This document shows, in pieces, positions 6,162 through 47,156 of a stretch of 62,904 bases of DNA (positions within the stretch are counted from its first letter, which is position 1; every line of letters starts with the position of its first letter). This stretch comes from a virus (taxonomy: Duplodnaviria; Caudoviricetes). The stretch lies in the IMG/VR virus record IMGVR_UViG_3300034168_001612, positions 1-62,904 of that record; one strand, given 5' to 3'. The translations under genes and the position numbers were made by a program. The notes under the pieces were generated by a model, which worked only from the letters and a program-made list of their open reading frames with translations, did no database searches and was not told where the DNA came from.

Positions 6162-6554
6162 ATGTCTAAAAATAGCAAACGAGTAGCAATTGGGTTAATA
6201 GTAGATAAAGAAAACAAAATTCTTATGGGAAAAAGAAATGATACAAACAAATGGACAATTCCCGCAGGTCACATAGAAGAAAATGAATGTCCGTTTGCCG
6301 GAATGGGAAGAGAGCTTAAGGAAGAGACAGGATTGGATGCTAAAGAAATTAAAATGATTAGAGCAGGATTTGAAGATGATTTACTGCTTTATTTATTTGA
6401 AATAGAAATAGATCCGAAACAAAAAATTGACACCTCCGGCGATCCGGATGGTGAATGTAACGATTGGACATATGAAGATCCATTCGATCATGTTTACGAA
6501 CTACATGTACCAGCTCATAAGAACTGGGCATTAAAACACTGGGCCAATAGGTAA
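6162..6554 (+). CDS. NUDIX hydrolase
   Basis: Nudix box PAGHIEENE..GMGRELKEETGL. Confidence 0.9.
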   Translation: MSKNSKRVAIGLIVDKENKILMGKRNDTNKWTIPAGHIEENECPFAGMGRELKEETGLDAKEIKMIRAGFEDDLLLYLFEIEIDPKQKIDTSGDPDGECNDWTYEDPFDHVYELHVPAHKNWALKHWANR

Positions 6555-11203: not shown

Positions 11204-11478
11204 TATGTTGTATGAATATGAAAAAAACTACAAATGAAAAACTTGTTGGTAAAGTAAAAAAAAGAAGCTGGGACGATCTGGCGGGTGATATAATTTCATT
11301 AGAAAATTGCATCAGAAAGGAAAAAAATTCTAAATCATTGATTTTACTCAAAAATAAGTTAAAAATATGGGAAAAGGAGAAATCTGATCGTATTTTTAAC
11401 ACTTTTGATATGAAAACTTTTTTAAACAAAAATAATGAAGAATTTGAAATAGAATATTCTACAAAAACAACCACTTAA
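11200..11478 (+). CDS. Hypothetical protein
   Basis: ORF overlapping the upstream stop. Confidence 0.4.
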   Translation: MICCMNMKKTTNEKLVGKVKKRSWDDLAGDIISLENCIRKEKNSKSLILLKNKLKIWEKEKSDRIFNTFDMKTFLNKNNEEFEIEYSTKTTT

Positions 11479-11537: not shown

Positions 11538-12074
11538 ATGGACATCAAAGAAGACGAAATCAAAGAAGTAAATAAATTAGGCAACCTTAATGGTGATGAA
11601 GTTAAGCTCATTACCCTGAAGGGAGGTCTTCATATTGGGATCGGCAAAAAAACTGAAAATAGCAACAAAAGCGCAATTTTAGCCATTGGATCTCATCCAG
11701 CTCTGGTCTCTTATCAAATTTCTAAGAAGTTTGAACAAAAATTTGAAGAAACTCTAAATAAAAGCGAAGGGAAGGCATCTCCCGAGGTTACTAATTATTC
11801 TAAAAATCTCTCCTCAATGAATAAGAATATTATGGGGTTAGATATCTATGCTATAAAAACTGGTGAAAATGTAGACTTCAAAATTACAAAACATAATTTT
11901 GAGATTTTTTCAATACAGGCAATTGATGATGGACAAACTCTTTCATTGAATAAAACATCTAAAAATGAAGAAAGACTATCCAAACTAGACAAGGCTGAGC
12001 TGAGTAAAAATTTGGAAAAAGCTATAAGACAATTTGCTAAAAACAGTAAATTAAAGATTAAGAAAAAATTCTAA
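11538..12074 (+). CDS. Hypothetical virion protein
   Basis: GAGGA RBS; LNKSE motif. Confidence 0.65.
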   Translation: MDIKEDEIKEVNKLGNLNGDEVKLITLKGGLHIGIGKKTENSNKSAILAIGSHPALVSYQISKKFEQKFEETLNKSEGKASPEVTNYSKNLSSMNKNIMGLDIYAIKTGENVDFKITKHNFEIFSIQAIDDGQTLSLNKTSKNEERLSKLDKAELSKNLEKAIRQFAKNSKLKIKKKF

Positions 12075-13346: not shown

Positions 13347-13634
13347 ATGAGTTCTTCTAAAAAATTAGAGAATTTTTTAAAAAAATCCCAAGGCGACCAG
13401 AGACAAGAGGCTGAGATAAAAAAAGCCGAGCTGATTAGTTGCCCAGACTGCGGTTTTAGTTTATATGAAGGTGGAAAAAGTTTGACGCTATGTATTTGTT
13501 ATGGAGAAGATTGGGATAAGAATATTAAAATTCAAAAGTCCGAAAAGGCCATAAAAATGCAGTTTCCTAAGAATATAGATCCAGAAAATATTGAAATGTT
13601 ATTGAATACATTAAAAAATTTGAATAAGGAATAG
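13347..13634 (+). CDS. Small zinc-ribbon protein
   Basis: CPDC..CIC; LKKSQ, IKKAE and IQKSE motifs. Confidence 0.6.
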   Translation: MSSSKKLENFLKKSQGDQRQEAEIKKAELISCPDCGFSLYEGGKSLTLCICYGEDWDKNIKIQKSEKAIKMQFPKNIDPENIEMLLNTLKNLNKE

Positions 13635-13636: not shown

Positions 13637-15520
13637 ATGAAAGAGCAAATGACCTACGTAGCAATCGATGCTGATGATGTAGGAGAAAGCATTGGAGGAG
13701 CTGTAATATCCGACGATGCAGATAAGCTATCATCAATTTCCGGCAAGATAAACGCTGGAGTACAAATTTTTTCAAAATGGGCTGAATATAACGGTGGATC
13801 TGTAATTAGTAGCGGAAGTGATGAGGCTATTTTTCAGGTTCCTTCAACCAGTATTAAAGAACTAGAAGATTTGAAAAACAAATACCAGAAGCATACAGGA
13901 TTTTCCGTATCAATTGGGATTGGTGAAAAAATATCTGATGCAGCTAAAGCTTTAATCTACGCCAAGGTGAACGGTAAAAATCAAATTGTTGATTATTCGC
14001 CTGAAATAGAAGAAGTGATGAAACAATCCATCACAGGAAACTTAGACAGAGAGCAATCTGATCAAAAATTAGAAGGCGGAGTAGGTGATGAGACTGAATC
14101 ATCAGAAGTTAAATCTGACCAGCTCAAGCAAGGTCGCACAGTAGAAAAAGAACACACCGACGATGAAGCGGAGGCTGAAGAGATCGCTTTAGATCATCTC
14201 ACAGAAGATCCTGAATACTATTCAAAACTTCAGGAAATGGAAAGTAGTAAGCCTAAAACCAGAAGGCCGAAATTTGAGGAAAAAGATGAAAGTGAAGATG
14301 AAAGTGAAGATGAAAGTGAAGAGGAAGATGAAGAGGAAGATGAAGATGAAGATACCGAAGATTTAGATCTTATACAAGATCAGGATTCGGAAGAAGAGAG
14401 TGAAAATTCATTTTTAAATCAAGAAGACTTAGATCTCGATGGCCGTCCTGACAAACAAGAAGAGCACGGGGAAATAAATCCTGAAGAAGACGATATAGAT
14501 AAAGATGGAGATACAGAGCACGAAGAGGCGATGGCTTCGGAGGCTGGTGAAAAAGATAAATATAGCGATGAAGGTGATTTTTCAGATGAATATCTGGATG
14601 AAGAAGCTGAACAAGATAAGACTGAACCAGAAGGCGAAGAAGAAATACCAGAAGGCGAAGAAGAAATGCCAGAAGGCGAAGAATTAGAAGAAGATGCGGA
14701 ATCCGAGGATGAGGGCGGTCTAACTGATTCTATAGCTTCGGAAATGTCTGACGAAGATATGTCTGAAGAAGAAATACCTGACGAAGAAATGTCTGACGAA
14801 GATATGGCGGATGAAGGGGATATGACTGATGAAGATTTAAAACAAGCCATTTTTGATAGCTTGCAAATATTCAAAGAAAATAAGGATATTCTATCCTCTC
14901 TTGCCTCTCAGAGTCCTGATCTATACAATGCTCTTGTTGTTTCTTTGCAATCTATGATAGAAATGGCAAAAGAGCTTGGATACGGAGGATACGGAGATAG
15001 CTCAAAGCAAGAGACTGATCCTAAAAAAATGAAAACCGAAGATGAAGAATCAAGCGATCAGGATGAAGACATGAATCCTGAAGACTATGAAGTCTCGGAC
15101 GATGAAGGAGATATCGAAAAAAGTGAGAATTTTCATAATTTAATAAACAAAATTAATAATACAAAAAATCTTCTAGAAATGAAAAAGAAAGAAGATAAAA
15201 AACAAATGTTTTTAAGGCTTAGAGAGAAGTTAAAGAAGATAAAAAACAAAGCCCCCGATTCTGGCAAAAAACCGTTCGAGGATAAAAAAAAGAAGCCACC
15301 AAAACCTAAGAAAGTTGAGGCAGCGTCATTTTGCTCGTCTTCTAATCAAAAAATGAAAACAGCAGGTCATGATTGTCGAGCTAATGAAGACAAAGACTCT
15401 CCCATGTGTGCTGCAAGAAAAAAAATGAATTGCAGAGGAAAAAATGCCGAAAAGGGTGCTGTTGTTCAGAAATCTGAAAAATTAAAAAACTTTCTGGAAA
15501 ATAAAAGAAAAAAGAATTAG
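13637..15520 (+). CDS. Modular acidic protein: N-terminal mCpol/GGDEF-like palm domain, DUF5661-like motif, acidic tract, Cys-containing basic tail
   Basis: YVAIDADDVG..NGGSVISSGSDE..SVSIGIG..AAKALIYAKVNGKNQI; QGRTVEKEHTDD..IALDHLTEDPEYYSKL. Confidence 0.75.
   Translation: MKEQMTYVAIDADDVGESIGGAVISDDADKLSSISGKINAGVQIFSKWAEYNGGSVISSGSDEAIFQVPSTSIKELEDLKNKYQKHTGFSVSIGIGEKISDAAKALIYAKVNGKNQIVDYSPEIEEVMKQSITGNLDREQSDQKLEGGVGDETESSEVKSDQLKQGRTVEKEHTDDEAEAEEIALDHLTEDPEYYSKLQEMESSKPKTRRPKFEEKDESEDESEDESEEEDEEEDEDEDTEDLDLIQDQDSEEESENSFLNQEDLDLDGRPDKQEEHGEINPEEDDIDKDGDTEHEEAMASEAGEKDKYSDEGDFSDEYLDEEAEQDKTEPEGEEEIPEGEEEMPEGEELEEDAESEDEGGLTDSIASEMSDEDMSEEEIPDEEMSDEDMADEGDMTDEDLKQAIFDSLQIFKENKDILSSLASQSPDLYNALVVSLQSMIEMAKELGYGGYGDSSKQETDPKKMKTEDEESSDQDEDMNPEDYEVSDDEGDIEKSENFHNLINKINNTKNLLEMKKKEDKKQMFLRLREKLKKIKNKAPDSGKKPFEDKKKKPPKPKKVEAASFCSSSNQKMKTAGHDCRANEDKDSPMCAARKKMNCRGKNAEKGAVVQKSEKLKNFLENKRKKN
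14284..14350 (+). repeat. Coding tandem repeat GATGAAAGTGAA x3 plus GAR/GAY runs
   Basis: Read directly; encodes a DESE acidic tract. Confidence 0.8.
14627..14682 (+). repeat. 21-bp coding repeat (PEGEEE[I/M]), about 3 copies
   Basis: CCAGAAGGCGAAGAAGAAATR units. Confidence 0.8.
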
Positions 15521-15771
15521 GGTCGCTAGATAAGACGAGTGGTGGACTACCGACCAAACAGACCACAAAGCATATTCCTAAACCCCATCACGAAGAAGGG
15601 ACTGTTAAGGGGTATAAGATAAAAGATACCGATCCGGCCACGGGCAAGGCTAAATGGATCGACGCATCCAGAGGACTAGCCTTGGATGACAATGGTGATC
15701 CCGTGTCTCCTCCTGGTCGCAGTCCTGTTAGAGGTACTAAAAATAAGCTTCCTCCTCCAGGACTTGTATGA
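15508..15771 (+). other. Putative programmed -1 frameshift site and 86-codon extension of the 13637 gene
   Basis: A_AAA_AAG at 15508-15514 in the correct frame; -1 frame open 15505-15771 with no ATG; its TGA overlaps the next ATG. Confidence 0.65.
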
Positions 15772-16532
15772 TTTTGGTGGATGTACAAATAGAAGGGAAT
15801 TTAGAACAAGATGGCAATAGAATAAAAAATAATATTCGAGAAGATCTTCATCTTGCCGTTAAAGCTATGGGTTCTAGTACTTTAAAAAAAGCAGAAGAAC
15901 TTGCTCAACAGCATCTTTCTCCAAAACTTGCCAGTATGTACAGAACCGCATTAAAGATAGAACAGCTATCAGAAGATGTAGTGATAATAGAATTGGATCA
16001 AAAAGCACTCTGGATAGAAAAAGGCCGCAAAGCAGGCTTTATGGAAGATCTCCTCAAATCTGGCACAAAAAAAGCAAAAGATGGGTCTAAATATAGGGTG
16101 ATACCTATTGGAGAATCAAAAACATCGCCTCAATCTCCTTCTGTAGGTGAAAATCTTGTGCCTGAGATAAAATCTTTTTTACAAAAAAAAGGTATCAGAA
16201 CAGGTGCGGGTGATTTAGAATTAGACAGCAGAGGAAGTCCCCGGCTTGGTAAAATAAATACTTTTAATATCAAAGATTTGAAAGATAAAAAACAAATTTC
16301 TGATAATATATCTAGAATAAGTGTTTTTCAGAATAAAAACCCTAAAACTGGAAAAGTAGAAAAAAGCATAACAGCGTTCAGGGTTATATCAGAAAAGCAT
16401 AAAGGAACGGGCAAATGGGTTCACCCAGGCACTCCTCCTGCAGAAATACTGGAAAAAGCTTTTAAATGGTCAGAACAACTATGGCAAACAGAGTTGTTTT
16501 TGGCGATTAAAGCAAAGTACGAAGGTAAATAA
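15768..16532 (+). CDS. Tail completion/neck protein (probable)
   Basis: WIEKG..KDGSKYRVIPI..FRVISEK..WVHPG motif seen in myovirus neck-region proteins. Confidence 0.6.
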   Translation: MILVDVQIEGNLEQDGNRIKNNIREDLHLAVKAMGSSTLKKAEELAQQHLSPKLASMYRTALKIEQLSEDVVIIELDQKALWIEKGRKAGFMEDLLKSGTKKAKDGSKYRVIPIGESKTSPQSPSVGENLVPEIKSFLQKKGIRTGAGDLELDSRGSPRLGKINTFNIKDLKDKKQISDNISRISVFQNKNPKTGKVEKSITAFRVISEKHKGTGKWVHPGTPPAEILEKAFKWSEQLWQTELFLAIKAKYEGK

Positions 16533-17515
16533 TGTCAATATGGCAAGGCGATGTCTTTTTTAGACGAATTATAGAATTGATCCTAAGAGATGTCAGACAA
16601 AATCCGTGGCTGATTGATGATATTCTTTCGGATTTTATCACAGATCCCATGCTTTCTGGCATATACGGTCAAAAAGAGATAGAAAACGCAAAAAAATGGA
16701 TCACTGATAACGAGATATCCGTATTTCTTCCTCATAGAATGGACTTGGAAAAAATGCCTTGTATTACCATCGCTATAGGAACCAACATGGAAGATAGGAG
16801 TCTGGCCAGAATGGCTGATATGACTCATATTGTTGAAACCTTAAACCCGACTCAAGTAGGTAAGGTAGTCCCTTATATTATCTCTCCTTTTAATTACATA
16901 TCTTACAACCAAGCAACAGGTTTTTTTGAAGTTCCAGATAGTATTAACTTACTAATAATACAACCAGGAATGGCGGTGATAAACCCCCAAACAGGCGCAG
17001 GATTTATTATTGTAAGCAAAAGCAACAATGGTTTTTCTATTGCGGCAGGAACCACTATAACCTTCCCTTCAATTGGCATAATCCCAGAGTATAGGATATA
17101 TAAAGCCAGAAGAGAAATTGCAACTTTCCAAGAAAACATCTCCATAGGATGTCATGTCCACGGTGATCCAAACGCCCTTCTGTGGCTTTATTCCATAATG
17201 ATGTATGGATTGTTAAGATATCGAGAAGGATTGATAGAATCTAGAAATTTCCAAATATCCAGCTTACAGACAACCGATATGATCAGGAATGATGCGTTTC
17301 AGAGCTTCGGAGAAAATGTCTATAGTCGATTCATAACTATAACCGGTCAGGTAGAGAATACTTGGATCAAGGCTCCTAAACGTGTAATAGAGGCTATCAA
17401 TATTGTTGAAGGAATCGATGCTGGACTGGTAATAATAAACAAAGACAATGGCGAAGTACCTGGAATTATTGATCGAGAACAGGATTCTTGGGTAGCTAAA
17501 ACTGATCCGGAATAA
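16532..17515 (+). CDS. Tail terminator/completion protein (probable)
   Basis: MPCITI motif; size and position upstream of the sheath. Confidence 0.55.
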   Translation: MSIWQGDVFFRRIIELILRDVRQNPWLIDDILSDFITDPMLSGIYGQKEIENAKKWITDNEISVFLPHRMDLEKMPCITIAIGTNMEDRSLARMADMTHIVETLNPTQVGKVVPYIISPFNYISYNQATGFFEVPDSINLLIIQPGMAVINPQTGAGFIIVSKSNNGFSIAAGTTITFPSIGIIPEYRIYKARREIATFQENISIGCHVHGDPNALLWLYSIMMYGLLRYREGLIESRNFQISSLQTTDMIRNDAFQSFGENVYSRFITITGQVENTWIKAPKRVIEAINIVEGIDAGLVIINKDNGEVPGIIDREQDSWVAKTDPE

Positions 17516-17535: not shown

Positions 17536-18168
17536 ATGGATAATTATTTAAAAGAAAAAAGCGATTTATTGTTAAAGTCACTTTATAAAAAAATGAAGAA
17601 ACTTGAACATAAAAAAAATGCCATTGAGGATGTTCTTGATTCAAATGCAACTGCTGAAATGAATCCTGACGACATCCCTACGTCCAGCTCTGGCACTTTA
17701 AATAAAGCCAAAATGCAGAAAAAACAAAAAGTGTCTGAGGATGTTAAAAAAAACGAAGAAATAATTGATAAACTTTTAAAAAATTTAGATGTGATTTCAA
17801 AAGCTTGCAAGTCAAAAATGGAAAAAAGATGCTGGGAAGGGTACGAAGCCACTCCTGGAAAAAAAGCTTATTCAGAAGGTTCTTGTCAATCTATAAAGAA
17901 AGAAGAAAAAGAAAAACCGTTCGTAGGGTATAATAAAGAAAAGCACTCCAAAGAGGGTGGTTTAAACGAAAAAGCTAGAGAAGAATACAATAGAGAGCAT
18001 GGATCGAATCTACAAGCTCCAGTTTCTTCAAAAGAAGCCAAAAAATCGCCCAAGAAAGCAGCTAGAAGAGAATCTTTTTGTGCTAGAATGTCGGGCGTAA
18101 AAGGTCCTACTAGTAAAGAAGGCAAAAAGACACCAAAAGGTGCCGCTCTTAAGAGATGGGATTGTTAA
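17536..18168 (+). CDS. Basic modular protein (CWxGY motif plus DUF6321-like C-terminus)
   Basis: RCWEGYEATPGKKAYSEGSC; GGLNEKAR..RRESFCARMSG..ALKRWDC. Confidence 0.7.
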   Translation: MDNYLKEKSDLLLKSLYKKMKKLEHKKNAIEDVLDSNATAEMNPDDIPTSSSGTLNKAKMQKKQKVSEDVKKNEEIIDKLLKNLDVISKACKSKMEKRCWEGYEATPGKKAYSEGSCQSIKKEEKEKPFVGYNKEKHSKEGGLNEKAREEYNREHGSNLQAPVSSKEAKKSPKKAARRESFCARMSGVKGPTSKEGKKTPKGAALKRWDC

Positions 18169-18249: not shown

Positions 18250-18990
18250 ATGTCTGAAAAGAAAATGTTTACAGCAGCAGAAGTGGCCAGAATGATTCTG
18301 GAAAAAACTCATAACACTTTAAAAAAACACGAAGATATGTTGCAAAAATCTAAAAACACTTCTCATGAAATAGATGCTGGTGAAGAGCCTAATAATGACG
18401 AGGCAGAGTGTCCTGAATCTTTAAAAGGTGAAGGAAGTTCTGAGGCTTCGGGAAATGAGCCTAAAAAAATTAAAGCTCCGGCAGAAGATAGCGAAGATCC
18501 AAGCATGGAAGACCAGTCTTTGAGTGATGATGAAAGCGAAGATGAAGAATCTGAAGAAGAAGAATCGGAAGAAAAAGAAGAACAACCTAAGTTTGAATTC
18601 AAAAAGTCTGAATCTGGTATGCACACTGTGCAGTACAAAACATTGGTAAAAAAAGAACAACCTCTTAAAAAACTAATGTCTGCAACAAGCGGTATGCCGG
18701 GAAGTGTTGCCTCAACCGGTGGTCCTTCTATAGGGTCTCAAATTGGTTTTCCAGGAATTAAAAAAGACGAAGATAAAAAAGAAGGCCAGGATATGGTCCC
18801 TAATCCAGATCCGAAAGCTCCTACTCATATTAGAAGAGAACAGGAAGGAGAAGGAAAATCAAAAACTATAACAGAAAATCAAAAAAAAGCAGGGTGGGGA
18901 CAGTCCATTTCTCCTAAGCAAAAAACAACCAATGTAGGCCAGTATCAAGGAATCAAAGCCGCACAGGAAAAAAGAAAAAAACAAGACTAG
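18250..18990 (+). CDS. Low-complexity charged putative internal head protein
   Basis: LQKSK and FKKSE motifs; acidic tract. Confidence 0.6.
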   Translation: MSEKKMFTAAEVARMILEKTHNTLKKHEDMLQKSKNTSHEIDAGEEPNNDEAECPESLKGEGSSEASGNEPKKIKAPAEDSEDPSMEDQSLSDDESEDEESEEEESEEKEEQPKFEFKKSESGMHTVQYKTLVKKEQPLKKLMSATSGMPGSVASTGGPSIGSQIGFPGIKKDEDKKEGQDMVPNPDPKAPTHIRREQEGEGKSKTITENQKKAGWGQSISPKQKTTNVGQYQGIKAAQEKRKKQD

Positions 18991-18991
18991 T

Positions 18992-20488
18992 ATGGAAAAA
19001 GACAATAAAATTCAATACAAAATTCTTAAATCTGAAGCTTGCGGTCATACTATCGAGTATAAGATGGTAAAGAAAGAACATGAGCTTGAAAAAGCTCGTA
19101 TTGATGAGGGATTGTCTTCTAGAGAAAAAATGAAAGCTCGTGAGGCAAGATCTTCTAAAGAAAGAGAACCGAGAGAATTAAGCCCTGAACAGTATGAGAC
19201 TGGTAAAAAAATAGCCCGGACTAAGGCTGTCACTGCTACAGGCGAAAAACAAAGAAAAGAAACTCTTAAAGATGTTCTTCATACACATAAGCAAAATGCT
19301 CCTAAATCTCCTTCCAAGGAAGATCTAGAATACCCTATGGCTGCTAGTGAAAAAGAATGTTTGTGCAAAGATTGTGATTGTGATAAAAAAGAAATGAATA
19401 AAAGAGAAAAATTCTATATTCAAAAGATTCAGGAATTGAGGAAATTTGGTTTTGATCAAAAAGAATTTGAAACAGGCTTAAGACAAAAAGTTGCTGCTAC
19501 GGCTGATCAACAACGGCAGCAAAAAGATACAAGTTTAGAAAATACTGGAATTGTTAATCGAAATCGAGCCGCCTTTGGTCAGCCCATGGCTACGCAAGGA
19601 ACTCAAAGCAGTATGGGCGATTATGTTTTAAAAGACGCTCCTCAAAGAGGGGAAAGAGCCGGAACAGCTTCTGTTAATCAAATGACAGGAATGAATAGAA
19701 TGTTACCTGCTTCTGCCTCTTCAGCACAAGGTCCGTCAGCACAAGCTCCTGCTCCTGCTGCTGGACAAGCTCCTGCTCCTGCTGCTGGACAAGCTCCTGC
19801 TCCTGCTGCTGGACAAGCTCCTGCTCCTGCTGGTGCTGCTGCACCGCAAAGGATGCAATTTGGGAAAGATAGCGGCGTGAATTTTAAAGATGCTTTCGCA
19901 CAAGCTAGGAAATCAGGTAATCAAGAATTTGACTGGTATAATCCTAAAACAGGTAAAACGCAGCCATATCATACCCATTCAAAAGAAGAATTTCAACAAG
20001 GTAAAACTCTTGCTGCTGGAAGAAATCCTGAAGGATTTCAATCACAGACTATAGGCGCTGATAATAAGTATTTCAAAGGTTATCAAGCTCAACAAAAAGC
20101 TGCTCCTACAGCACAAGGTCCTGTCGCTGCTCCTACAGCACAAGGTCCTGCCGCTGCTCCCGCAGCAAAAGCGCCAAATCCAAATGCGAACATAACGGGT
20201 GTAAATACAAATGGTTCTATTTCTTCAACAGAATCTGATGGAAGAAAAACATTAACCATGCCTCAAAATTCTATATCAATGGCTCGTCCTGATCAAATGG
20301 GAATGGCACCAGCTCTAAACGAGCCAGGTAAAGTAGGAATGAAAATTCCTGGTGCCTCTGTTAAATATCCAGAAGCCGAAGGTTTTAAATCTGGAGATAC
20401 GGCCACAACCCAAGCTCCTACGAGTGAGCAGGCTGAAGGAAATATAAAATATAATAAAAATAATAAATTAAATGCGAATATGGGATAA
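18992..20488 (+). CDS. Low-complexity putative internal/ejection protein
   Basis: ILKSE and LEKAR motifs; FKDAFAQARKSG..FDW..YHT module; Ala/Pro repeats. Confidence 0.6.
   Translation: MEKDNKIQYKILKSEACGHTIEYKMVKKEHELEKARIDEGLSSREKMKAREARSSKEREPRELSPEQYETGKKIARTKAVTATGEKQRKETLKDVLHTHKQNAPKSPSKEDLEYPMAASEKECLCKDCDCDKKEMNKREKFYIQKIQELRKFGFDQKEFETGLRQKVAATADQQRQQKDTSLENTGIVNRNRAAFGQPMATQGTQSSMGDYVLKDAPQRGERAGTASVNQMTGMNRMLPASASSAQGPSAQAPAPAAGQAPAPAAGQAPAPAAGQAPAPAGAAAPQRMQFGKDSGVNFKDAFAQARKSGNQEFDWYNPKTGKTQPYHTHSKEEFQQGKTLAAGRNPEGFQSQTIGADNKYFKGYQAQQKAAPTAQGPVAAPTAQGPAAAPAAKAPNPNANITGVNTNGSISSTESDGRKTLTMPQNSISMARPDQMGMAPALNEPGKVGMKIPGASVKYPEAEGFKSGDTATTQAPTSEQAEGNIKYNKNNKLNANMG
19741..19831 (+). 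repeat. 24-bp tandem repeat, about 3.8 copies (QAPAPAAG)
   Basis: ACAAGCTCCTGCTCCTGCTGCTGG units. Confidence 0.9.
20099..20160 (+). repeat. 27-bp tandem repeat, about 2.3 copies (AAPTAQGP[V/A])
   Basis: GCTGCTCCTACAGCACAAGGTCCTG units. Confidence 0.85.
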
Positions 20489-20710: not shown

Positions 20711-22867
20711 ATGGCACAACGATTAACTACTAGCTTTGTAAACACCAACATCCCCGGTGCTTACCCAAGCGTAACAGTAAAGTCAACCCCGGTAGGCATT
20801 TCTAGTACTGGAGATATTGTTATTATCGGAGAAGCCGAAGGCGGCGCTGATTTTACACAAGACGCACTTAAAGATAACTTTTTTACTGCCACTCAATTAA
20901 CAAGAGTGAAAGCAAAATATCTGAGAGGACCAATAGTTGACGCTATGGCGGCGCTTATTTCTCCAAGCAATGACACCAATATCCAAGGATCGATTGGTAA
21001 AGTCTACATTATTAAAACTAATGGTGGATCAAAAGCATTGGCAAGTATGGGTGCTTCTCCATCGGGTGTTTACGGCTCTCTTTCTGATAAGAATTTTGGT
21101 GCAGATGGAAATAAATATTTTTTCAAGATAAGTCAAGTAGAATCTGAAGTTGCTCCTTCTATCACAGGAAATAGCTTAGCTCCATTTACTGCCACAGACT
21201 TTGACGCTCTTTCTTTTTCTGTAAGATTGAATGGTGGAGCGGAAGTAGCAATTACCTTAGGTACTGGTACTCATGCTTCTCTTGCTGCTCTTGCTTCTGA
21301 AATTGATGCCCTTTTGCCAGCTGGAATGAGCTGTGCAGCAGTTCCTGCCAGTAATTCGATTGCTATCTCTGTTGACGCAGATGCAGCCGCTAATGGAAAA
21401 GGATCTGGTAAATCATTTGAATTGATTGACTCTACCCCGGGTGATTTGGCAGTTTTGGGTCATGATGAAGATCTTATCGTTTCCTCTCAAGAGCCAGAAG
21501 TTCAAATAGCTATCAATAGACAAGATACGAACACTAACGAATCTTTCATGGCAGAGGCTCAAATAGCTATATCTGTAGGATATGATGGTACTAGTGCTAT
21601 TCTTTCAATTTCATCAGGAAGCCTTACAACTACTGTAGTTGGCGGATCTGGCTCTAGTCTAAGTATCGCTCTTAGCGAATTTACAACTATGTCCGACCTT
21701 GCTGCTTTCATTAATTCTCAAGCAGGATATTCTGCTTCTTCAGTTTCTTCTTCTAATAATCTAAGCCCGCTTAAATTGGATGAAGTAGCTGCTATCGGAA
21801 TTGCTACATCTGGCGGATTTGAAGCTGGAAGAATTAAAAGAGCACTTTATAACTTTCAAAATAAAATTGCATCAAGTTCTGTTCTTGATTTTGAAGCATC
21901 TGCTGCTGCAGGATTGCCGGCTGAAATGGCTGCTTCTCAATTCTTAGCAGGAGGAGCAAAAGGTTCTACAACTGCTGCTGATATTGCAAATTCTATCCCT
22001 TCTTTAGAGGGTGTTAAAGTTAATTTTGTTATTCCTCTGTTCTCTAGAGATGCCTCTGAAGATATCGCAGATGGTTTGACTGAATCTACTTCTACTTATA
22101 CAATTGACGCTATTAACGCTCTTGTTAAGTCTCACGTTCTTGCTATGTCAACTCCAAAAATGAAGAGGAACAGAGTAGCTATGCTCAGTAAACAAGCAAG
22201 CTATGCAGCTACAAAAGAAGCGGCGGCTTCTTTGTCTAATTACAGAGCTAACATGTTTTTCCAAAGATCAAGCCAAGTTAATTCTCTTGGTAATGTTACA
22301 GAGTACCAACCATGGCATGCGGCCTGTATTGCAGCTGGTATGCAAGCTGCAGGATTTAACAAGTCTCTGACTAATAAATTCGCCAATGTTATCAGTTTTA
22401 AAGATCCTGCTGGATTTGATTCTGGTAATCCGGGTGATGTTGAAGATGCAATTGATGCAGGATTATTTTTCATGCAACAAGAAACAGCTGGGAACAAGTG
22501 GGTGGTTGATCAAACTACTTACGGTTTTGACACAAATTTTGTGTACAACTCACTACAAGCCGTATATATGGCCGATGTTCTTGCGATTCAATTGTCTGAA
22601 TCTCTTGAAAAATTTGCAGTAGGACAATCTCTTGCTGATATTACTTCTGCAGGAATTGTTGCCTTCATTTCTAAAAAAATGGAAGAATATAGAAAGCTTA
22701 AAATCATTGGGGCTTCTGATGACGCTCCTTTGGGATATAAAAATGTTAGCGTTTCTATCAATGGCCCTATTGCAGAAGTTAAACTTGAAGCTAAACTTGC
22801 TACGGCAATCTTGTTCATACCAATTGAATTAGAATTGAGCCAAATCCAGTCTAGCGCATCAGCATAA
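20711..22867 (+). CDS. Contractile tail sheath protein
   Basis: PGAYPSV..IVIIGEAEGG N-terminus and sheath-like C-terminal domain; 718 aa. Confidence 0.9.
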   Translation: MAQRLTTSFVNTNIPGAYPSVTVKSTPVGISSTGDIVIIGEAEGGADFTQDALKDNFFTATQLTRVKAKYLRGPIVDAMAALISPSNDTNIQGSIGKVYIIKTNGGSKALASMGASPSGVYGSLSDKNFGADGNKYFFKISQVESEVAPSITGNSLAPFTATDFDALSFSVRLNGGAEVAITLGTGTHASLAALASEIDALLPAGMSCAAVPASNSIAISVDADAAANGKGSGKSFELIDSTPGDLAVLGHDEDLIVSSQEPEVQIAINRQDTNTNESFMAEAQIAISVGYDGTSAILSISSGSLTTTVVGGSGSSLSIALSEFTTMSDLAAFINSQAGYSASSVSSSNNLSPLKLDEVAAIGIATSGGFEAGRIKRALYNFQNKIASSSVLDFEASAAAGLPAEMAASQFLAGGAKGSTTAADIANSIPSLEGVKVNFVIPLFSRDASEDIADGLTESTSTYTIDAINALVKSHVLAMSTPKMKRNRVAMLSKQASYAATKEAAASLSNYRANMFFQRSSQVNSLGNVTEYQPWHAACIAAGMQAAGFNKSLTNKFANVISFKDPAGFDSGNPGDVEDAIDAGLFFMQQETAGNKWVVDQTTYGFDTNFVYNSLQAVYMADVLAIQLSESLEKFAVGQSLADITSAGIVAFISKKMEEYRKLKIIGASDDAPLGYKNVSVSINGPIAEVKLEAKLATAILFIPIELELSQIQSSASA

Positions 22868-22891
22868 TTTTAAGATATAAGGAGAAATAAA

Positions 22892-23341
22892 ATGAGTGTA
22901 ACAATGACAGGCGCACGAGCCAAAGTAAAAGTAGACGGGAAATACGTGGGAGTTTTTGATTCTTGCCAATATGGCGGAACTATAGGAACAGAACCTATTC
23001 ACACATTAGGTCGTTATTCACCTGCAGAAGTTGTTATTAACAGCTACGAAGCTGTTCAGGTACAATGCGGTGGTTTTAGAATTATAGACCAAGGTGTTCA
23101 CGTATTACCAGCAGCCCCAAAACTGCAGGATCTTTTGAATTTTGAATCTATTCAATTAGAAGTTGAAGACAGACAATCAGGCAAAACAATTGCCATTGTT
23201 AAAAATTGTGTTCCTTCTAGCTGGGGAGAGGCTCAACAAGCAAAAGGTACTACTAGATTCAACATTACTTATGTTGGAACTGTTTACAGCGATGAGTCTG
23301 GAGATCAAGACGAAAGTGCTGGAGCATCTAGCCTTCCTTAA
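22892..23341 (+). CDS. Tail tube protein
   Basis: TGARAKVKVDG..VG..PIHTLGRY..E; directly after the sheath. Confidence 0.85.
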   Translation: MSVTMTGARAKVKVDGKYVGVFDSCQYGGTIGTEPIHTLGRYSPAEVVINSYEAVQVQCGGFRIIDQGVHVLPAAPKLQDLLNFESIQLEVEDRQSGKTIAIVKNCVPSSWGEAQQAKGTTRFNITYVGTVYSDESGDQDESAGASSLP

Positions 23342-23367: not shown

Positions 23368-23396
23368 AGCCACCTTCGGGTGGCTTTTTTATTTTT
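23368..23396 (+). terminator. Rho-independent terminator
   Basis: AGCCACC-TTCG-GGTGGCT-TTTTT (cUUCGg loop). Confidence 0.9.
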
Positions 23397-26411: not shown

Positions 26412-28196
26412 ATGACTGTAAAGAAGGTAAAAAGCCCCGCAAAGCTTTATTGTTCTAATCCTAGTATTTTGAGGAAAATCACCTCTCAAACTATGGATGA
26501 GATCTCAAGTATCGTAGGGTCTAGCTATGGTCCCGGTGGTAAGACCACTCTTATAGAGAGTGAGTATCCAGGAATTCCCAATAAGAATACCAAAGATGGG
26601 GTGACGATTTTTAAATCGCTAGGGTCACAAGATCCCTATAAACATTTGATTATCGAACAAACTAGGGATGCAGCCCAAAGAACGGCCAGTGAGGCTGGAG
26701 ATGGAACGACTGCAACCACTATTATCTCAGCTCATCTCGTTAAATCTTTGTTTAAATATTGTGAAGAAAATCCAAAAGAATCGCCTCAAAGGGCTACTCG
26801 GATTCTGGACAAAATAGTAAAAAAAGAACTTATTCCAACTGTCAGAAAAGCATCAATCCAAATCACTACAGAAAACCAACATCTTCTTGGGAAAGTGGCT
26901 AAAATCTCTGCGAATGGGGATGAGGAGATGGCGGAAGCAGTAATGCAAGCGTTTGATATGGTAGGTTTTGGCGAATCTTCTCACGTTACGATCCAGGAAC
27001 TTTCCGGACCGGGTGGGTACGAAGTAGAGCTTATTGAAGGATATCCGATTGCTATCGGTTTTGAAGAATCAATCGGTAAATTTCATACTGCATTCATAAA
27101 TGATAAAGCCAATCAAAGATGTAAGCTTGATAAGCCTTTGTTTCTTTTGTACGATGGTATAGTGAACGATTTAGTGGCATTTCTTCCTTTGATCGATTCT
27201 CTAGGCAAAAAATACGTACAAGAAGGCGATTCAGATTACTGTAACCTAGTACTAGTAGCCCATGGTTTTTCTGAAAACGTATTAACAACTCTTGCTTTTA
27301 ACTTTTCAAATCCTACAACTTTAAACGTTGTACCAATGGCAACTCCTATAACCAACCAAAAAAATTCCCGATTAGAGTTTCTTTACGATATAGCTGGCTT
27401 TACAGGAGCTAAGATTTTTGATATGAATAATCAGGTAGCGAAGGCTGGATTGCAGGATCTAGGAGCTGGTATGGAACTGTTTGAGTTCTATAGATTTAGA
27501 GGGACAGTTGTCGGTCAGCCTGACGAGATGGATATTTCAGATAGAGCTGACGAATTGGAACAACAACTCAAAAATGCAGCAAGTATTTCCGAAAAATTGG
27601 ATCTGGAAGAGAGGCTCGGTAAATTAACAAACGGTATTGCAAAACTTAAAATATATGGTGCATCTAATGGCGAACTTAAAGAAAGACACGACAGATGCGA
27701 AGATGCTGTTTGTGCTGTAAGAAGTGCGATTAAGCATGGAGCACTTCCCGGCGGATGTAGAGTACTGGTTAACTTAGCATTGAAATTAAATTCTGAATAT
27801 GAAGAAAGTCACAGGGACTACAACTTGGTTCAGACTGTTTTGATTGAAAGTCTTATGGAACCTCTACGCAAGCTTCTGGACAATGCGGGATATAATTCTG
27901 AAGAAATTCAAAAAATTATTACAGATTATTTTGTTGACACAAAAAAAGTCTACGATATAGAAAATATGGAATTCGGAGATCCAGAGGATCTTGGTATATT
28001 CGATGCCTCCCAAGCTATTATCCAGGCTCTAGAGAACAGTGTTTCAATCGCCAGTGTCATGGGTAATTTGGGTGGAATTGTTTGTTCTCCAAGGGATAAT
28101 CAATTAGAACTGAGTGCATGGAAAGAAGATCAAGATTTTAGAAGATCTGTAGACCATGCGGAAGAATTCACAAACGAAGCGAACGTAAGACCTTAA
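26412..28196 (+). CDS. groEL: Phage chaperonin GroEL (Cpn60)
   Basis: GPGG, TKDGVT, AGDGTTAT, ISANGD, EERLGKL, EDAVCA, PGG motifs. Confidence 0.92.
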   Translation: MTVKKVKSPAKLYCSNPSILRKITSQTMDEISSIVGSSYGPGGKTTLIESEYPGIPNKNTKDGVTIFKSLGSQDPYKHLIIEQTRDAAQRTASEAGDGTTATTIISAHLVKSLFKYCEENPKESPQRATRILDKIVKKELIPTVRKASIQITTENQHLLGKVAKISANGDEEMAEAVMQAFDMVGFGESSHVTIQELSGPGGYEVELIEGYPIAIGFEESIGKFHTAFINDKANQRCKLDKPLFLLYDGIVNDLVAFLPLIDSLGKKYVQEGDSDYCNLVLVAHGFSENVLTTLAFNFSNPTTLNVVPMATPITNQKNSRLEFLYDIAGFTGAKIFDMNNQVAKAGLQDLGAGMELFEFYRFRGTVVGQPDEMDISDRADELEQQLKNAASISEKLDLEERLGKLTNGIAKLKIYGASNGELKERHDRCEDAVCAVRSAIKHGALPGGCRVLVNLALKLNSEYEESHRDYNLVQTVLIESLMEPLRKLLDNAGYNSEEIQKIITDYFVDTKKVYDIENMEFGDPEDLGIFDASQAIIQALENSVSIASVMGNLGGIVCSPRDNQLELSAWKEDQDFRRSVDHAEEFTNEANVRP

Positions 28197-37957: not shown

Positions 37958-38585
37958 AATTGATAATGACTTTACGGATGATGAAGTAGAAAAGGTTAAT
38001 ACCTATGTATCCAATGGCTCCATTGGGCTAGAAACTATTGTAAAAGACGAACATAAAATGAATTCGCTTTTCGGCCTGTACATGGCTGGGAAAACTTATG
38101 AAGAAATTAGCAAAATATCCAGAGTCAAGAAAGATATCGTCCTTTATTTATCTGCAAAAATGAGATGGTACGAAAAAAGAATGGAATATCTTGAAGATAT
38201 TCAGCGACAAATGACTAAAAAGTTATCCTACACCCGAATAGAAAGTCTTAATTTTATTAGCGATCTAATCAATTGTCATCATAAATACTATGGAGATGAG
38301 ATTAATAGGTATCTACAAACAAATGATAGGACTATTATTGAAAATTTAGATTTAAAATCTTTAACTCAATACTTTAAAAGTATTGAAATATTAGAGAAAA
38401 TTCTAAATCCCACAAATGTGACCAAGGGCGGAGGAAGTGGGACTACTATTAACATAAACGCTATCGGATCTAAAATAGATGCAACTGATGACAGCATTCA
38501 AATTACACCCTCTAATACGGGCGATATTCTGAAAGCATTGGCAAATCTAAAAGATAAAAAGAAAAGTGAAGAGAGTGATAAATAA
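37938..38585 (+). CDS. HTH protein, possible terminase small subunit
   Basis: LYMAGKTYEEISK..W HTH, helical core, TTININ tail. Confidence 0.4.
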   Translation: MKMDLSKIDNDFTDDEVEKVNTYVSNGSIGLETIVKDEHKMNSLFGLYMAGKTYEEISKISRVKKDIVLYLSAKMRWYEKRMEYLEDIQRQMTKKLSYTRIESLNFISDLINCHHKYYGDEINRYLQTNDRTIIENLDLKSLTQYFKSIEILEKILNPTNVTKGGGSGTTININAIGSKIDATDDSIQITPSNTGDILKALANLKDKKKSEESDK

Positions 38586-38628
38586 GTATGATAATATACT
38601 CGTACAGCTATTTTTCAAAGGAGAAAAA

Positions 38629-39606
38629 ATGAGAATGTTTCTAGCTATGCTGTTATTTGTTTTGTTTGTACCAACGACCCAAGCTAAAGAGATCGTCCTT
38701 ACTCAGGATAACTCCGTAGTATTGAATGGAGAAGTATCGGGTAGGTCTGTTTCTAAATTGATTGGTGAGATCAAAAAATTAGATGCCGAATTAAAAAATG
38801 GGTATCCAATTTATCTGTTTCTAAACACTCCCGGAGGAAGTATTCAGGCGGGGTTAGAATTATTTGAATTTGTTAAAGGTGTAAACAGACCTGTTCACAC
38901 AATCACATTGTTCGCAGCATCAATGGGGTTTCAGACAGTTCAACACTTCGGTACACGATATATCTTAGAATACGGTGTCCTAATGAGCCATAAGGCTTCT
39001 GGTGGATTTCAAGGAGAGTTTGGCGGGGAATCCAGCCAGATCGATTCCCAATACGGACTATGGCTACGAAGACTGAAGATGATGGATCAAAAAACCGTCG
39101 AACGCACAAAAGGCAAAAAGACTCTCCAGAAATACCAAGCAGAATACGATAACGAACTGTGGCTTAATGGTGAAGAAGCTGTTAAAAATGGTTATGCTGA
39201 TGAGGTAGTGACTGTAAAATGTTCTGCAGGACTGCAAGGGGAAAAAGAAGAACAAGTAAATTTCATGGGAATGAGATTTGTTGTAAAGTTTGACAAATGC
39301 CCTATCAGAACTGGTCCTGTTTCTGTTGCCGCTTCCGTAAGAACAAACAAAGGTCTTATGACTCTTGATGATTTTGTGACCAAGGGTGGAAATTTTGATA
39401 CTGATAATTGTCAAAGAAATGCTCAAGTTCAGCAGTATGGGTGGTCAAATCAAGTAACAGCTCCTGTTGAATCAGAGATTTGTGCTCTTGATAAAGGATT
39501 GAGTATTGAAAAGGTTGAACAAGCTATCCAAGAATACAGAACTAAAACCTTGACAAAAAACAAAAAAGTTATTAAGATGAGTTTTGGAAACTTTGTTTCG
39601 GAATAA
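38629..39606 (+). CDS. ClpP-family protease with an N-terminal signal peptide
   Basis: AAGGAG RBS; MRMFLAMLLFVLFVPTTQA|KE; LFLNTPGGS, AASMG, MSH, ELWL..EAV..GYAD. Confidence 0.8.
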   Translation: MRMFLAMLLFVLFVPTTQAKEIVLTQDNSVVLNGEVSGRSVSKLIGEIKKLDAELKNGYPIYLFLNTPGGSIQAGLELFEFVKGVNRPVHTITLFAASMGFQTVQHFGTRYILEYGVLMSHKASGGFQGEFGGESSQIDSQYGLWLRRLKMMDQKTVERTKGKKTLQKYQAEYDNELWLNGEEAVKNGYADEVVTVKCSAGLQGEKEEQVNFMGMRFVVKFDKCPIRTGPVSVAASVRTNKGLMTLDDFVTKGGNFDTDNCQRNAQVQQYGWSNQVTAPVESEICALDKGLSIEKVEQAIQEYRTKTLTKNKKVIKMSFGNFVSE

Positions 39607-44433: not shown

Positions 44434-45405
44434 ATGTCATTATTAAATCCCAGAGTTTTTTACAAGCCTTTTGAATACCCTCGTGCTTACGAGTATTTTG
44501 AAAAACAACAAAATGCCCACTGGTTGCCCAGTGAGGTTGCGATGTCTAAAGACATCAATGATTGGACCCATAAGCTTACAGAGTCCGAAAGACTCGTGAT
44601 TGGGCAAATTCTAAAATCATTTACTCAAACCGAAATCAGTGTTAATGAATACTGGGGAAGGAAGATAACTAAATGGTTCCAAAAGCCCGAGATTTGCATG
44701 ATGGCTTCGGCATTTAGTTCAATGGAAAGCGTCCATACCGTGGGTTATTCTTATCTGAATGACAGTCTGGGGTTGGATGATTATTCTGCTTTTTTACAAG
44801 ATCCTACGGCGGTTGCTAAATTAGATGCATTGAAAAATGTAAAAGGCAAAAGCAAACAGGATATAGCCCGGTCTTTGGCTATATTTAGTGGGTTTACAGA
44901 AGGTGTGAACTTATTTAGTTCTTTTGCCATTCTGATGAACTTTTCTAGATTCAATCTGTTAGAGGGAGTAGAAACTATCGTAAGCTGGTCGGTTCGGGAT
45001 GAGTCACTGCACTCTGAGGCGGGATGTTGGTTGTTTAGAACTTTTATTGAAGAAAACCCAGAGATATGGACTGACGAACTTAAAAAAGATATCTACGATG
45101 CAGCCAGACTCTCGGTTAAATTAGAAGATGACTTCATTGATAATGCTTTTTCCTTGGGTAAAGTAAGAGGTCTCGATCCAGTTGATCTTAAAAATTTTAT
45201 CAGAATGAGAGCTAATGCAAAATTGAATGACCTAAACCTTGCAACTAATTGGAAAAATATTGATCAGGACTCTCTTAAAAGAATGGCTTGGTTCGACGAA
45301 CTAAGTGGCGGTACAAAGTTTGCAGACTTCTTCGCCGGAAAAGTTACGGATTACAGTCGCTGTAATTTTACAATCGATAATTTATTTGAAGAAGAGGACA
45401 AATAG
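44434..45405 (+). CDS. nrdB: Ribonucleotide reductase class Ia, beta subunit
   Basis: KPFEYP, HWLPSEV, ESVH..Y, EGVNLFSSF, RDESLH, DFF..VTDY. Confidence 0.95.
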   Translation: MSLLNPRVFYKPFEYPRAYEYFEKQQNAHWLPSEVAMSKDINDWTHKLTESERLVIGQILKSFTQTEISVNEYWGRKITKWFQKPEICMMASAFSSMESVHTVGYSYLNDSLGLDDYSAFLQDPTAVAKLDALKNVKGKSKQDIARSLAIFSGFTEGVNLFSSFAILMNFSRFNLLEGVETIVSWSVRDESLHSEAGCWLFRTFIEENPEIWTDELKKDIYDAARLSVKLEDDFIDNAFSLGKVRGLDPVDLKNFIRMRANAKLNDLNLATNWKNIDQDSLKRMAWFDELSGGTKFADFFAGKVTDYSRCNFTIDNLFEEEDK

Positions 45406-47156
45406 TGGAATTAGATAAAGAATTACAAAATCTAAAACAGACAGGCGAAGCTCCGGAATGGATGACTTCTGCCGGTTATATTACAATTTCAAAAGGCTAC
45501 AGACTTAAGGGTGAAACACCAAAAGGAATGTACCAGCGAGTTGCTTCAAGTGCTGCTGAATTCTTATACCAGAATACCGATAAAGTATTAGATTTTACCA
45601 AAAGCCAGATGGCTGATATTTTTTCCCAAGCAATGTGGAAAAACTGGCTATGCCCAGCTAGTCCTGTTTTATCAAATTGTGGAACTGACAGAGGGCTTCC
45701 TATAAGCTGTTATGGCAATGATGTTGGGGATTCTGTGCAACGAATCATGGAATGTGCAGCCGAGCTTGCCATGCTATCCAAGAATTCTGGTGGTGTAGGA
45801 ATGAACTGGAGCAGGATCAGACCACGAGGTACTCCGATCAAAGGGGGGGCTAATGGGACTTCTGAAGGCATTATTCCTTTTGCTAAAATTTACGATTCAA
45901 CGATCATAGGTATTTCTCAAGGATCTACTCGTCGAGGAGCCGCTTCTGGTAATCTAAATATTGAGCATGGTGATTGGCATGAATTTGTCCGTATGCGCAG
46001 GCCTGAAGGAGATACCAACCGTCAATGCGGGAATCTTCATCACTGTACGGTTATTAATGATGATTTTATGCAAAAAGTAGTAGATGGCGACTATGTTGCT
46101 AGGGCTAAATGGGCAGAGCTTATGAAGGCTCGTATGGAGACTGGTGAACCTTATATAATGTTCAAAGATAACGTCAATAAAACAAATCCTGAAGGGTATA
46201 AAAAACTTGGGCTAAAAGTTGATATGACAAATATATGTAGCGAAATCACTCTTTTTACGGATGATGACCACAGTTTTATTTGTTGTCTGGCCTCCCTCAA
46301 TCTGGTTAACTATGATGAATGGAAAACAGAAAAAATTAATGACTTATCTCTTCCTCAGATTGCGACAATTTTCTTAAACGGTGTACTGAATGAATTTATT
46401 AGCAAGGCTCAATCAGTATACGGCCTTGATAAAGTAGTAAGACACGCCACTAAAGGAAGGGCTATTGGAATAGGGGTTTTAGGATGGCACACTCTTCTAC
46501 AAGCCAAAAGCCTTCCCTTTGAATCATTTCCAACAATGATGCTGAATGGTGAGATTTTTAATTTCATACACAAAGAAGCCGTACAGGCATCGAAGGGTAT
46601 GGCCCAGGTTTTTGGAGAGCCGGAGTGGTGTAAAGATACAGGGATGTACAATTCTCATTTAATAGCAATTGCTCCTACTAGATCGAATTCGATTATTTCA
46701 GGGGATGTGTCTCCAGGTATTGAACCAATAATTGCCAACGCTTATGTTGATAAAACAGCTAAGGGAACTTTTATTAGGAAGAATCCATATCTTATGGTAC
46801 TATTAGAAAAATATGGTAAAAATGATGACAAGATCTGGAAAGATATTGCTAGAAAAAATGGATCGGTACAGCATTTTGAATTTCTTTCTGAGAATGAAAG
46901 AAATGTATTCAAGACAGCTTATGAGATTAATCAGATGGCAATAATTACACAAGCATCTCAAAGACAGCAATTTGTATGCCAATCTCAGAGTCTGAATTTG
47001 TTTTTTCCAGTAGAAGTAAAGCCTAGTTATTTCAACAAGGTGCATATGGAAGCATGGAAGATGGGCATTAAGACTCTTTACTATTGTCGATCTAAATCAG
47101 GCATCCAAGCAGATGTTGCCAACAGGGATGAAGGATGTCTTTCCTGTGAGTCGTAG
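45405..47156 (+). CDS. nrdA: Ribonucleotide reductase class Ia, alpha subunit
   Basis: ISCY, QGSTRRG, NICSEI, CCLAS, IAPT, KTLYY, CLSC. Confidence 0.95.
   Translation: MELDKELQNLKQTGEAPEWMTSAGYITISKGYRLKGETPKGMYQRVASSAAEFLYQNTDKVLDFTKSQMADIFSQAMWKNWLCPASPVLSNCGTDRGLPISCYGNDVGDSVQRIMECAAELAMLSKNSGGVGMNWSRIRPRGTPIKGGANGTSEGIIPFAKIYDSTIIGISQGSTRRGAASGNLNIEHGDWHEFVRMRRPEGDTNRQCGNLHHCTVINDDFMQKVVDGDYVARAKWAELMKARMETGEPYIMFKDNVNKTNPEGYKKLGLKVDMTNICSEITLFTDDDHSFICCLASLNLVNYDEWKTEKINDLSLPQIATIFLNGVLNEFISKAQSVYGLDKVVRHATKGRAIGIGVLGWHTLLQAKSLPFESFPTMMLNGEIFNFIHKEAVQASKGMAQVFGEPEWCKDTGMYNSHLIAIAPTRSNSIISGDVSPGIEPIIANAYVDKTAKGTFIRKNPYLMVLLEKYGKNDDKIWKDIARKNGSVQHFEFLSENERNVFKTAYEINQMAIITQASQRQQFVCQSQSLNLFFPVEVKPSYFNKVHMEAWKMGIKTLYYCRSKSGIQADVANRDEGCLSCES

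Follow-up and report, generated by a model that had tools for sequence, protein, structure and literature searches.

The window analysed here, the whole 62.9-kb stretch of IMG/VR virus record IMGVR_UViG_3300034168_001612 (CheckV completeness ~39%), carries on its + strand an open reading frame (ORF) of 627 codons (13637..15520) whose product begins with a minimal CRISPR polymerase (mCpol) palm domain (residues 7-120; 13655..13996, + strand). The start of this zero-frame ORF agrees with an N-terminus, MKEQMTY, that is kept in close relatives, and the domain was recognised by profiles, by alignment to PDB sequences, in a predicted structure and by Foldseek. Behind it lie a DUF5661 motif, a long hyperacidic linker, a helical module and a basic tail, so that the protein as a whole is best described as an mCpol head on a carrier of ~500 residues. 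Sequencing runs containing the window's phage are labelled lake and fresh water, and a comparison of runs also found contig pieces identical to the window in runs of other studies.

An earlier note on this DNA, made from the sequence alone, had read residues 1-120 (13637-14000 spans residues 1-121 of the ORF) as following the mCpol/GGDEF palm pattern, with the acidic residues kept and with DGD and GGD replaced by DAD and GSD. Profile and fold searches bear this out on the mCpol side. Residues 7-120 match Pfam PF18182 (mCpol) over the complete profile (1-114 of 114) with an E-value of 1.2e-17 and 64.8 bits, well above the curated cut-off of 26.4 bits; the domain searched alone gives E 3.7e-19, the NCBIfam model NF033576 scores 53.1 bits against a cut-off of 40, and the PADLOC profile CARF_HEPN_mCpol matches at E 1.6e-7. 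The GGDEF profile PF00990 gave no match to the query in Pfam at E<=10, and the motif here reads G-S-D-E-A. In phmmer searches of the PDB the nearest solved sequences are 9nwn_B (E 7e-11) and KpOptS 9mnr_A (E 1.9e-10), both mCpol proteins of the bacterial defence system Panoptes, and the alignment runs without gaps across the first 65 residues. An AlphaFold2 model of the domain, built on 131 family sequences, has a predicted local distance difference test (pLDDT) score of 90.5 and a predicted template-modelling (pTM) score of 0.82. Its top six Foldseek hits in the PDB are all OptS/mCpol chains (9pd0, 9mnr, 9nwn), with template-modelling (TM) scores by target of 0.85-0.89, root-mean-square deviations of 1.4-2.4 Å and 28-31% identity, followed by a second tier of GGDEF cyclases and Csm1 in which GGDEF structures reach TM scores of 0.5-0.6. 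We conclude that residues 7-120 are a genuine mCpol domain.

The residues expected of an active enzyme are present. The motifs read from the ORF are D11-A12-D13-D14 and G60-S61-D62-E63, and the remaining key positions are S35, N39, K104, K110 and K114. KpOptS uses Asp6 and Asp57 for catalysis (PMC12657218) and S30 and N34 for ATP selectivity (PMC12657230, PMC12657218); in the ungapped alignment these four correspond to D11, D62, S35 and N39, and all four are kept. Since KpOptS, an active enzyme, reads A-A-D where the window protein reads G-S-D, the replacement of GGD by GSD is a weak argument against activity, and the authors of the OptS work describe the GGDEF motif as nearly absent from that enzyme (PMC12657218). 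Across 191 aligned domain rows, D13 and D62 are each retained in 187, E63 in 175, G94 in 191, K104 in 179, K110 in 191 and K114 in 183. The combination [D/N]11-D13-D62-[E/D]63-K110 is intact in 177 of 190 domain instances, and the 13 exceptions are P0042, the second domain in each of three tandem-mCpol proteins, seven sequences that read GGDQ and two that are truncated. Judged from this pattern, the mCpol domain of the window protein is probably an active nucleotide cyclase. Position 39, which governs base selectivity, is variable (N in 88 rows, D in 30, K in 29 and E in 16), and the base used may therefore differ between phages. The three tandem proteins (P0063, P0065 and P0073, all metagenomic) each carry a first domain that keeps the catalytic set and a second that has lost it, an arrangement reminiscent of Cas10, in which one palm is active and the other degenerate.

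The domain belongs to a large family. Scanning 1.84 billion cluster representatives (clusters at 50% identity) without a profile recovered 911 of them at E<=1e-3 and, at the stricter limit of E<=1e-10, 579, so that at least 579 clusters share the domain; the best 150 matches are mostly proteins of 350-1,100 residues with the domain at the N-terminus. We collected a family set of 207 proteins, 187 of them with mCpol (N-terminal in 157, internal in 30), and scanned 46 relatives with Pfam. Viral contigs of up to 177 kb were scanned three times, with the single domain and with two subfamily alignments, which yielded 9, 18 and 18 loci. Matches among the phage domains reach E 1e-23 to 1e-65, a much closer relationship than that with KpOptS (E 1e-10).

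The modules that follow the cyclase head are encoded in the same frame and strand (+). DUF5661 (PF18905; residues 158-203, 14108..14245) matches at E 2.4e-12 with 47.4 bits, against a cut-off of 27, and is followed by a fast-evolving linker (residues 206-400, 14252..14836) that is 52% aspartate plus glutamate (D+E) and shows low identity among relatives; the fusion to a DUF5661-like motif and acidic tracts proposed in the earlier note is thus real. Next come a conserved helical C-module (approximately residues 401-450, 14837..14986) that is confined to mCpol proteins, and a basic C-terminal region (residues 496-627, 15122..15517; 30% K+R, four Cys). The window protein therefore combines mCpol, its single recognisable enzyme domain, with DUF5661 and three modules that have no assigned function. 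Its relatives are built, from N- to C-terminus, of mCpol, a hyperacidic linker, the helical module and an anchor-like C-terminal motif. The C-module, ~50 residues long, is present in 161 of the 187 mCpol proteins, in none of the 20 collected proteins that lack mCpol, and in 45 of 45 locus ORFs. The linker ahead of it has a median length of 236 residues and a D+E content of 37%, and it diverges much faster than the domain across relatives. The tail motif, ~40 residues, ends 39 collected proteins, every one of which has mCpol.

DUF5661 has a wider distribution. It occurs in 20 long acidic proteins without mCpol (P0043-P0062), among them fusions to NUDIX (P0047), DUF6321 (P0048) and Peptidase_C39_2 (P0049), and behaves like a shared adaptor. 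A literature search found no mention of DUF5661, and searches of PDB sequences with DUF5661, the C-terminal third and the tail-motif profile returned nothing or noise. For the C-terminal half of P0135, every look-alike in the ESM Atlas fell below our threshold, including the best, an SH3-like cluster (TM score 0.51). Within the linker, the GAA-rich low-complexity segment 14270-14356 attracts contigs from unrelated organisms (summed depth <=44,655), and read depth there is meaningless.

The zero-frame ORF does not appear to be the gene's only product. An in-phase slippery heptamer, A_AAA_AAG (15508..15514, + strand), lies one codon ahead of the TAG stop (15518-15520), and the -1 frame is open from 15505 to 15771, ending in a TGA that shares bases with the start codon (ATG, 15768) of the following gene. 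The family's tail motif is found in this -1 frame (15598-15708, E 5e-12). Of 46 loci, 15 (including Myxococcus phage Mx1, discussed below) have the motif in frame with mCpol, 26 have it in the -1 frame and four in the +1 frame, and one gave no match to it. An in-phase X_XXY_YYZ heptamer is present in 25 of the 26 loci of the -1 class (A_AAA_AAG in 21, C_CCA_AAG in 3, another in 1). As a control, we counted in-phase A_AAA_AAG at all 17,698 positions of the window's 57 ORFs; it occurs eight times, and the copy described here is the only one that lies within 30 nt of a stop codon and opens a long -1 frame (85 codons, versus 1-18 for the others). In an independent study, a contig covering 15397-15547 agrees with the window at every base, so the A-run is not an assembly slip. 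Based on the position of the heptamer and the frame of the motif, we consider it likely that a programmed -1 frameshift produces two isoforms, the longer of which would gain ~85 residues that include the conserved anchor-like motif. No PHROG matches the -1 frame extension. The four loci of the +1 class (L012 ~11260-11281, L018 ~11585-11605 and L027/L028 ~11640-11674; overlap 116-185 nt) have in common an xCC_CCA_CAG close to where the zero frame ends; slippage of tRNA-Pro by -2 on CCCC could account for them, or the motif may belong to a separate gene.

The gene sits within a block of virion genes, which agrees with two further claims of the earlier note, that the domain is phage-encoded and that it lies among morphogenesis genes. 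The window is a virus record, its genes include virion, replication and chaperone functions, and sheath, tube, structural, terminase and portal matches were obtained with PHROG and Pfam. Immediately upstream, a gene with a Cys-rich ribbon-like motif (13347..13634, + strand) ends 2 nt before the mCpol start; an SLT-domain protein is encoded four genes upstream, and a virion structural protein (phrog_1004) at 12076. Downstream on the same strand are a phrog_16819 gene (15768-16532), a terminator-like gene (16532-17515; PF23932/phrog_1000, below its cut-off), and the tail sheath (20711) and tube-like (22892) genes that close the block (20711..23341). A terminator-like hairpin follows the tube-like gene (23368-23385, + strand), and our terminator scan found no + strand site from 8.5 kb up to 23368. 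Farther on are the genes for the terminase (28200) and the portal (30781). A promoter scan performed no better on the window than on shuffled sequence (46 signals found versus 47 expected).

The same order, homologues of 12076, 12941, 13347, the mCpol gene, 15768 and 16532 and then sheath and tube, is common to 45 of 45 loci, including Mx1; the 15768 homologue is called on the opposite strand in two of them. Each of five CheckV-complete genomes of 167-177 kb has one mCpol match (5/5). Domain identity to the window tracks that of the sheath and tube proteins: the domain of locus L005 is 80% identical and its sheath 68%, L012 gives 37% versus 55%, and Mx1 23% versus 36%. The mCpol gene is a core gene of Mx1-like myophages, present in single copy in their neck/tail block and passed on vertically, and not an accessory gene.

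Several other features of the window are recorded here. Between the terminator-like gene and the sheath (17536-18168 and 18250-20488) are a DUF6321 protein (E 4e-18), an acidic protein of 246 amino acids (aa) and a 498-aa protein with PAPAAGQ-type repeats. The phage also encodes a Cpn60/GroEL-like chaperonin (26412-28196), two ClpP-like proteases (38566-39606 and 61703-62419), a DnaE-type Pol III alpha subunit (51639-55262) and both subunits of ribonucleotide reductase (44434-47156). A stand-alone NUDIX gene (6162-6554; E 7e-14, and PADLOC PDC-S07 at E 2e-9) is retained by several relatives; elsewhere among phages, NUDIX is fused to mCpol or to ART-PolyVal.

Fusions to small-molecule enzymes recur among the 46 relatives scanned with Pfam: mCpol is joined to NUDIX and DUF5661 in P0133 and P0164, to NUDIX and SAM-lyase/DUF3293 in P0157, and to GNAT in P0192 and P0202, while P0095 pairs it with a 2H-like domain that scores below its cut-off. 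Among cultured phages the protein was found only in Mx1 (WNM70340.1; locus L011 8992-10398), which is also the only cultured phage that matches the tail sheath (41% identity). The Mx1 orthologue is encoded four genes upstream of the sheath and aligns over its full length with P0132 (E 7e-40), keeping the C-module and an in-frame tail motif. Its domain is 23% identical to that of the window and scores 21 bits against PF18182, under the 26.4-bit cut-off. Further upstream in the same Mx1 block are a giant ART-PolyVal+NUDIX protein (L011 3-3872) and a protein with PI3/PI4-kinase-like and HipA-like matches (L011 3880-5739), both of which are candidates for further cargo enzymes. Mx1 escapes a defence island that combines a CBASS (cyclic-oligonucleotide-based antiphage signalling system) with a type III-B system (PMC11506125). 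We considered this escape as support for the enzyme and dropped it, since the Mx1 domain looks catalytically dead.

We searched for proteins that could read the product. The earlier note had reported no CARF, SAVED or two-transmembrane (2TM) partner beside the domain, and our results concur: CARF, SAVED and 2TM/Cap15-like partners were absent from Pfam matches on 63 window ORFs, CARF, SAVED and 2TM partners from PADLOC matches on 47, and no transmembrane protein was seen beside the mCpol gene in hydropathy profiles of 22. Cap15_CD_rec (PF18153) and SAVED (PF18145) matched none of the five complete relatives (0/5), and the control genomes gave no match either. Rfam matched no family in the window, riboswitches included, nor was a sponge or nuclease partner identified there. 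Gene 9767 showed no 2H phosphoesterase domain by Pfam (E<=5, on five N-terminal regions) or by phmmer against the PDB.

Taken together, these data lead us to propose that the protein is an active mCpol on a virion-associated, host-directed cargo carrier of the polyvalent type, a reading to which we give about an even chance. The first 125 residues would form the cyclase, an oligomer by homology with KpOptS, and would convert ATP, with no activator needed, to a cyclic di- or oligo-adenylate. Everything behind it would serve as a tether made of DUF5661, the disordered hyperacidic linker, the family-only helical module and the basic tail, and frameshifting at A_AAA_AAG would provide it in a short and a long form. 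As cargo associated with the particle, it would bring or place a constitutive writer of signal nucleotides in the infected cell, where it could tamper with host nucleotide signalling; the target would most likely be host-encoded. The cargo aspect is suggested by the fusions of mCpol to NUDIX, SAM-lyase, GNAT and 2H-like domains and by the ART-PolyVal+NUDIX protein in the Mx1 block, and the variation at position 39 also speaks for a delivered counter-defence enzyme. A more specific version, in which an injected mCpol head on its disordered tether floods the cell with cyclic adenylate, so that guards of the Panoptes kind are held shut or the nucleotide competes at the sensor domains of CBASS and type III systems, we regard as doubtful. 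If it were true, this would be the first counter-defence that writes an immune nucleotide rather than degrading or sponging one, and the variation at position 39 would be the trace of an arms race over the choice of nucleotide.

Several observations weigh against the proposal. The Mx1 domain is degenerate, with D11S (S-I-D for D-x-D), GAVG in place of GGDE, K110Q and K114G. In Mx1 the catalytic residues were lost and the carrier was kept, so at least one lineage can do without catalysis, and the carrier must have a further role. Asn replaces Asp at position 11 in 50 of 191 rows (Asp in 137). Searches of the window and of the five complete relatives revealed no receptor, and no PHROG of known function matches the protein. 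One RNA library holds pieces of the gene, in which DNA carry-over is not excluded, so we make no claim of expression. Many of the loci are near-duplicates, and the locus counts are therefore not counts of independent events. On the frameshift, four loci need a +1/-2 shift, a heptamer is missing from one locus of the -1 class and the motif from another locus; the fold of 15500-15600 gives no significant stimulatory RNA structure 3' of the heptamer (z -1.28; 26 of 200 shuffles fold as well), and AlphaFold2 folds the -1 extension and its anchor motif poorly (pLDDT 60, pTM 0.29). An adjacent stop codon may substitute for a stimulatory structure.

The degeneracy of Mx1 also favours a morphogenetic role, in which the carrier is the selected function, for example as a neck/tail assembly factor, and mCpol is mainly an oligomerisation head whose catalysis is incidental or vestigial. 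Mx1 keeps the carrier, the C-module and the tail motif despite its dead domain, 45 of 45 loci have the gene in one invariant slot flanked by neck and tail genes, the C-module was not seen outside mCpol proteins, and two isoforms made by frameshifting are typical of phage structural and assembly genes such as tail chaperones. However, the active-site residues, among them three lysines and the D-E pair, are near-invariant over hundreds of clusters while the linker evolves freely, a pattern that an oligomerisation role would not predict, and the fusions to other small-molecule enzymes suggest enzymatic cargo; we consider a structural role improbable. The related alternative raised in the earlier note, a dead nucleotide binder or structural exaptation, suits Mx1 but not the window protein or the 177 of 190 family domains with an intact residue set. 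A comparably small chance is assigned to a late cytoplasmic enzyme that is not packaged and whose nucleotide is a phage-internal or host-directed late signal (lysis timing, superinfection exclusion or hijacking of the host's cyclic di-AMP (c-di-AMP) physiology). The long co-directional block of late type, which has no + strand terminator-like site until 23368, and the signs of translational coupling (the 2-nt gap upstream and the -1 frame stop that overlaps the next start) would fit such an enzyme. The blank searches for a receptor in the window (Pfam, PADLOC), for Cap15_CD_rec and SAVED in the five complete relatives, and for a riboswitch in the window argue against it, and the anchor-like motifs and polyvalent-type fusions better fit a particle-bound protein.

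The earlier note's own suggestion of a decoy is a further alternative, in which the phage cyclase supplies the nucleotide made by the host OptS/mCpol, and guards such as the 2TM-beta protein OptE or CARF-transmembrane proteins stay bound to ligand while phage sponges or nucleases deplete host signals. Among solved structures the closest are indeed Panoptes synthases, S35 and N39 are the adenine-selectivity pair of KpOptS, and variability at position 39 would be expected if the products track host signals. OptS is a constitutive synthase (PMC12657230), so a delivered copy would act at once. On the other side, the gene is core, syntenic and vertically inherited while Panoptes is described as "relatively rare" (PMC12657218), the Mx1 copy looks catalytically dead, the window yielded no sponge or nuclease partner and the 2H search in gene 9767 was blank, and the phage domains are much nearer to each other than to KpOptS, with no sign of recent capture from a host. 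We therefore grade an anti-Panoptes decoy as possible but unsupported, and unlikely to be the correct account.

If the window protein is active, as in the polyvalent-type cargo reading, then viruses also write this class of nucleotide, and the arms race gains writers beside erasers and sponges. Work on mCpol has so far been confined to its role in bacteria, as one half of a guard system by which phages are punished when they remove immune nucleotides, and a widespread lineage of large phages that keeps an apparently active mCpol as a core gene would be new. Among the papers listed in our literature search, those relevant to mCpol are Panoptes papers and reviews, and those retrieved for phage-encoded minimal CRISPR polymerases all treat the bacterial system; no joint mention of mCpol and polyvalent proteins was found. 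Viral mCpol is not mentioned in the distribution section of PMC12657218, nor is a phage-encoded mCpol in the consulted passages of PMC13712596 (a 2026 review) or PMC13577387. The only trace of the phage family that we found in print is a row of Supplementary Table 3 of PMC12657218, which lists Mx1 WNM70340.1 as "mCpol+?" and is the sole viral row in the 12 of 17 supplementary files searched. The family constitutes a natural experiment, with most members active-looking and Mx1 degenerate, and the mCpol domain is small and soluble-looking.

The window protein shares with the Panoptes OptS/mCpol enzymes (KpOptS, 9mnr and 9pd0; 9nwn) the family, the fold, the catalytic Asp pair, the S/N pair and a minimal size without the accessory domains of Cas10. 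Panoptes mCpol proteins of type I make 2',3'-c-di-AMP and related dinucleotides, and those of type II make cA3, cyclic tri-adenylate (PMC12657218, PMC12657230, PMC13577387). In contrast to OptS, the window protein is viral, is only 28-31% identical, carries ~500 residues of carrier and lies in a structural block with no S-2TM-beta, CARF or SAVED partner found; because it is virus-encoded and no nucleotide-sensing partner was found, we do not class the locus as a Panoptes operon, a kind of locus that belongs to cellular genomes and is often adjacent to CBASS. The polyvalent proteins of phages have genes next to those for virion proteins, are predicted to enter the particle and to be delivered from it, and include GGDEF and RelA/SpoT domains (Iyer et al. 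2017, PMC5512222), and interference with host nucleotide signalling has already been proposed for them (PMC5512222). The window protein resembles them in placing a conflict-type enzymatic head on a long multi-module protein encoded among virion genes, and the multi-enzyme fusions of its relatives qualify as polyvalent; it differs in that the paper names GGDEF and not mCpol, and in its one enzyme domain, fixed core position and frameshifted anchor.

Mx1 WNM70340.1 is an orthologue in the same position with the same C-module and tail motif, but it has lost the catalytic residues, and its tail motif is reached in frame, with no frameshift. Searches of BFVD with the domain returned one uncharacterised look-alike from an uncultured phage (TM score by query 0.80) and several phage GGDEF proteins. 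The latter, such as gp350 of Bacillus phage G and the "diguanylate cyclase" of SP-15 (Foldseek E 5e-5 to 2e-4), are viral palm look-alikes that belong to another family and lack the carrier architecture. Frameshifting by -1 at A_AAA_AAG is known from E. coli dnaX, and -1 frameshifting also from the phage tail assembly chaperones G/GT. Unlike the G/GT genes, the mCpol gene lies upstream of the sheath and is thus no tail chaperone by position, and it departs from both precedents in having no detected downstream structure and a shift site one codon before the stop. Like both, it has an in-phase heptamer that opens a -1 extension and would give two products sharing their N-terminal part; it probably adds a new case of programmed frameshifting in a phage gene that does not encode a chaperone.

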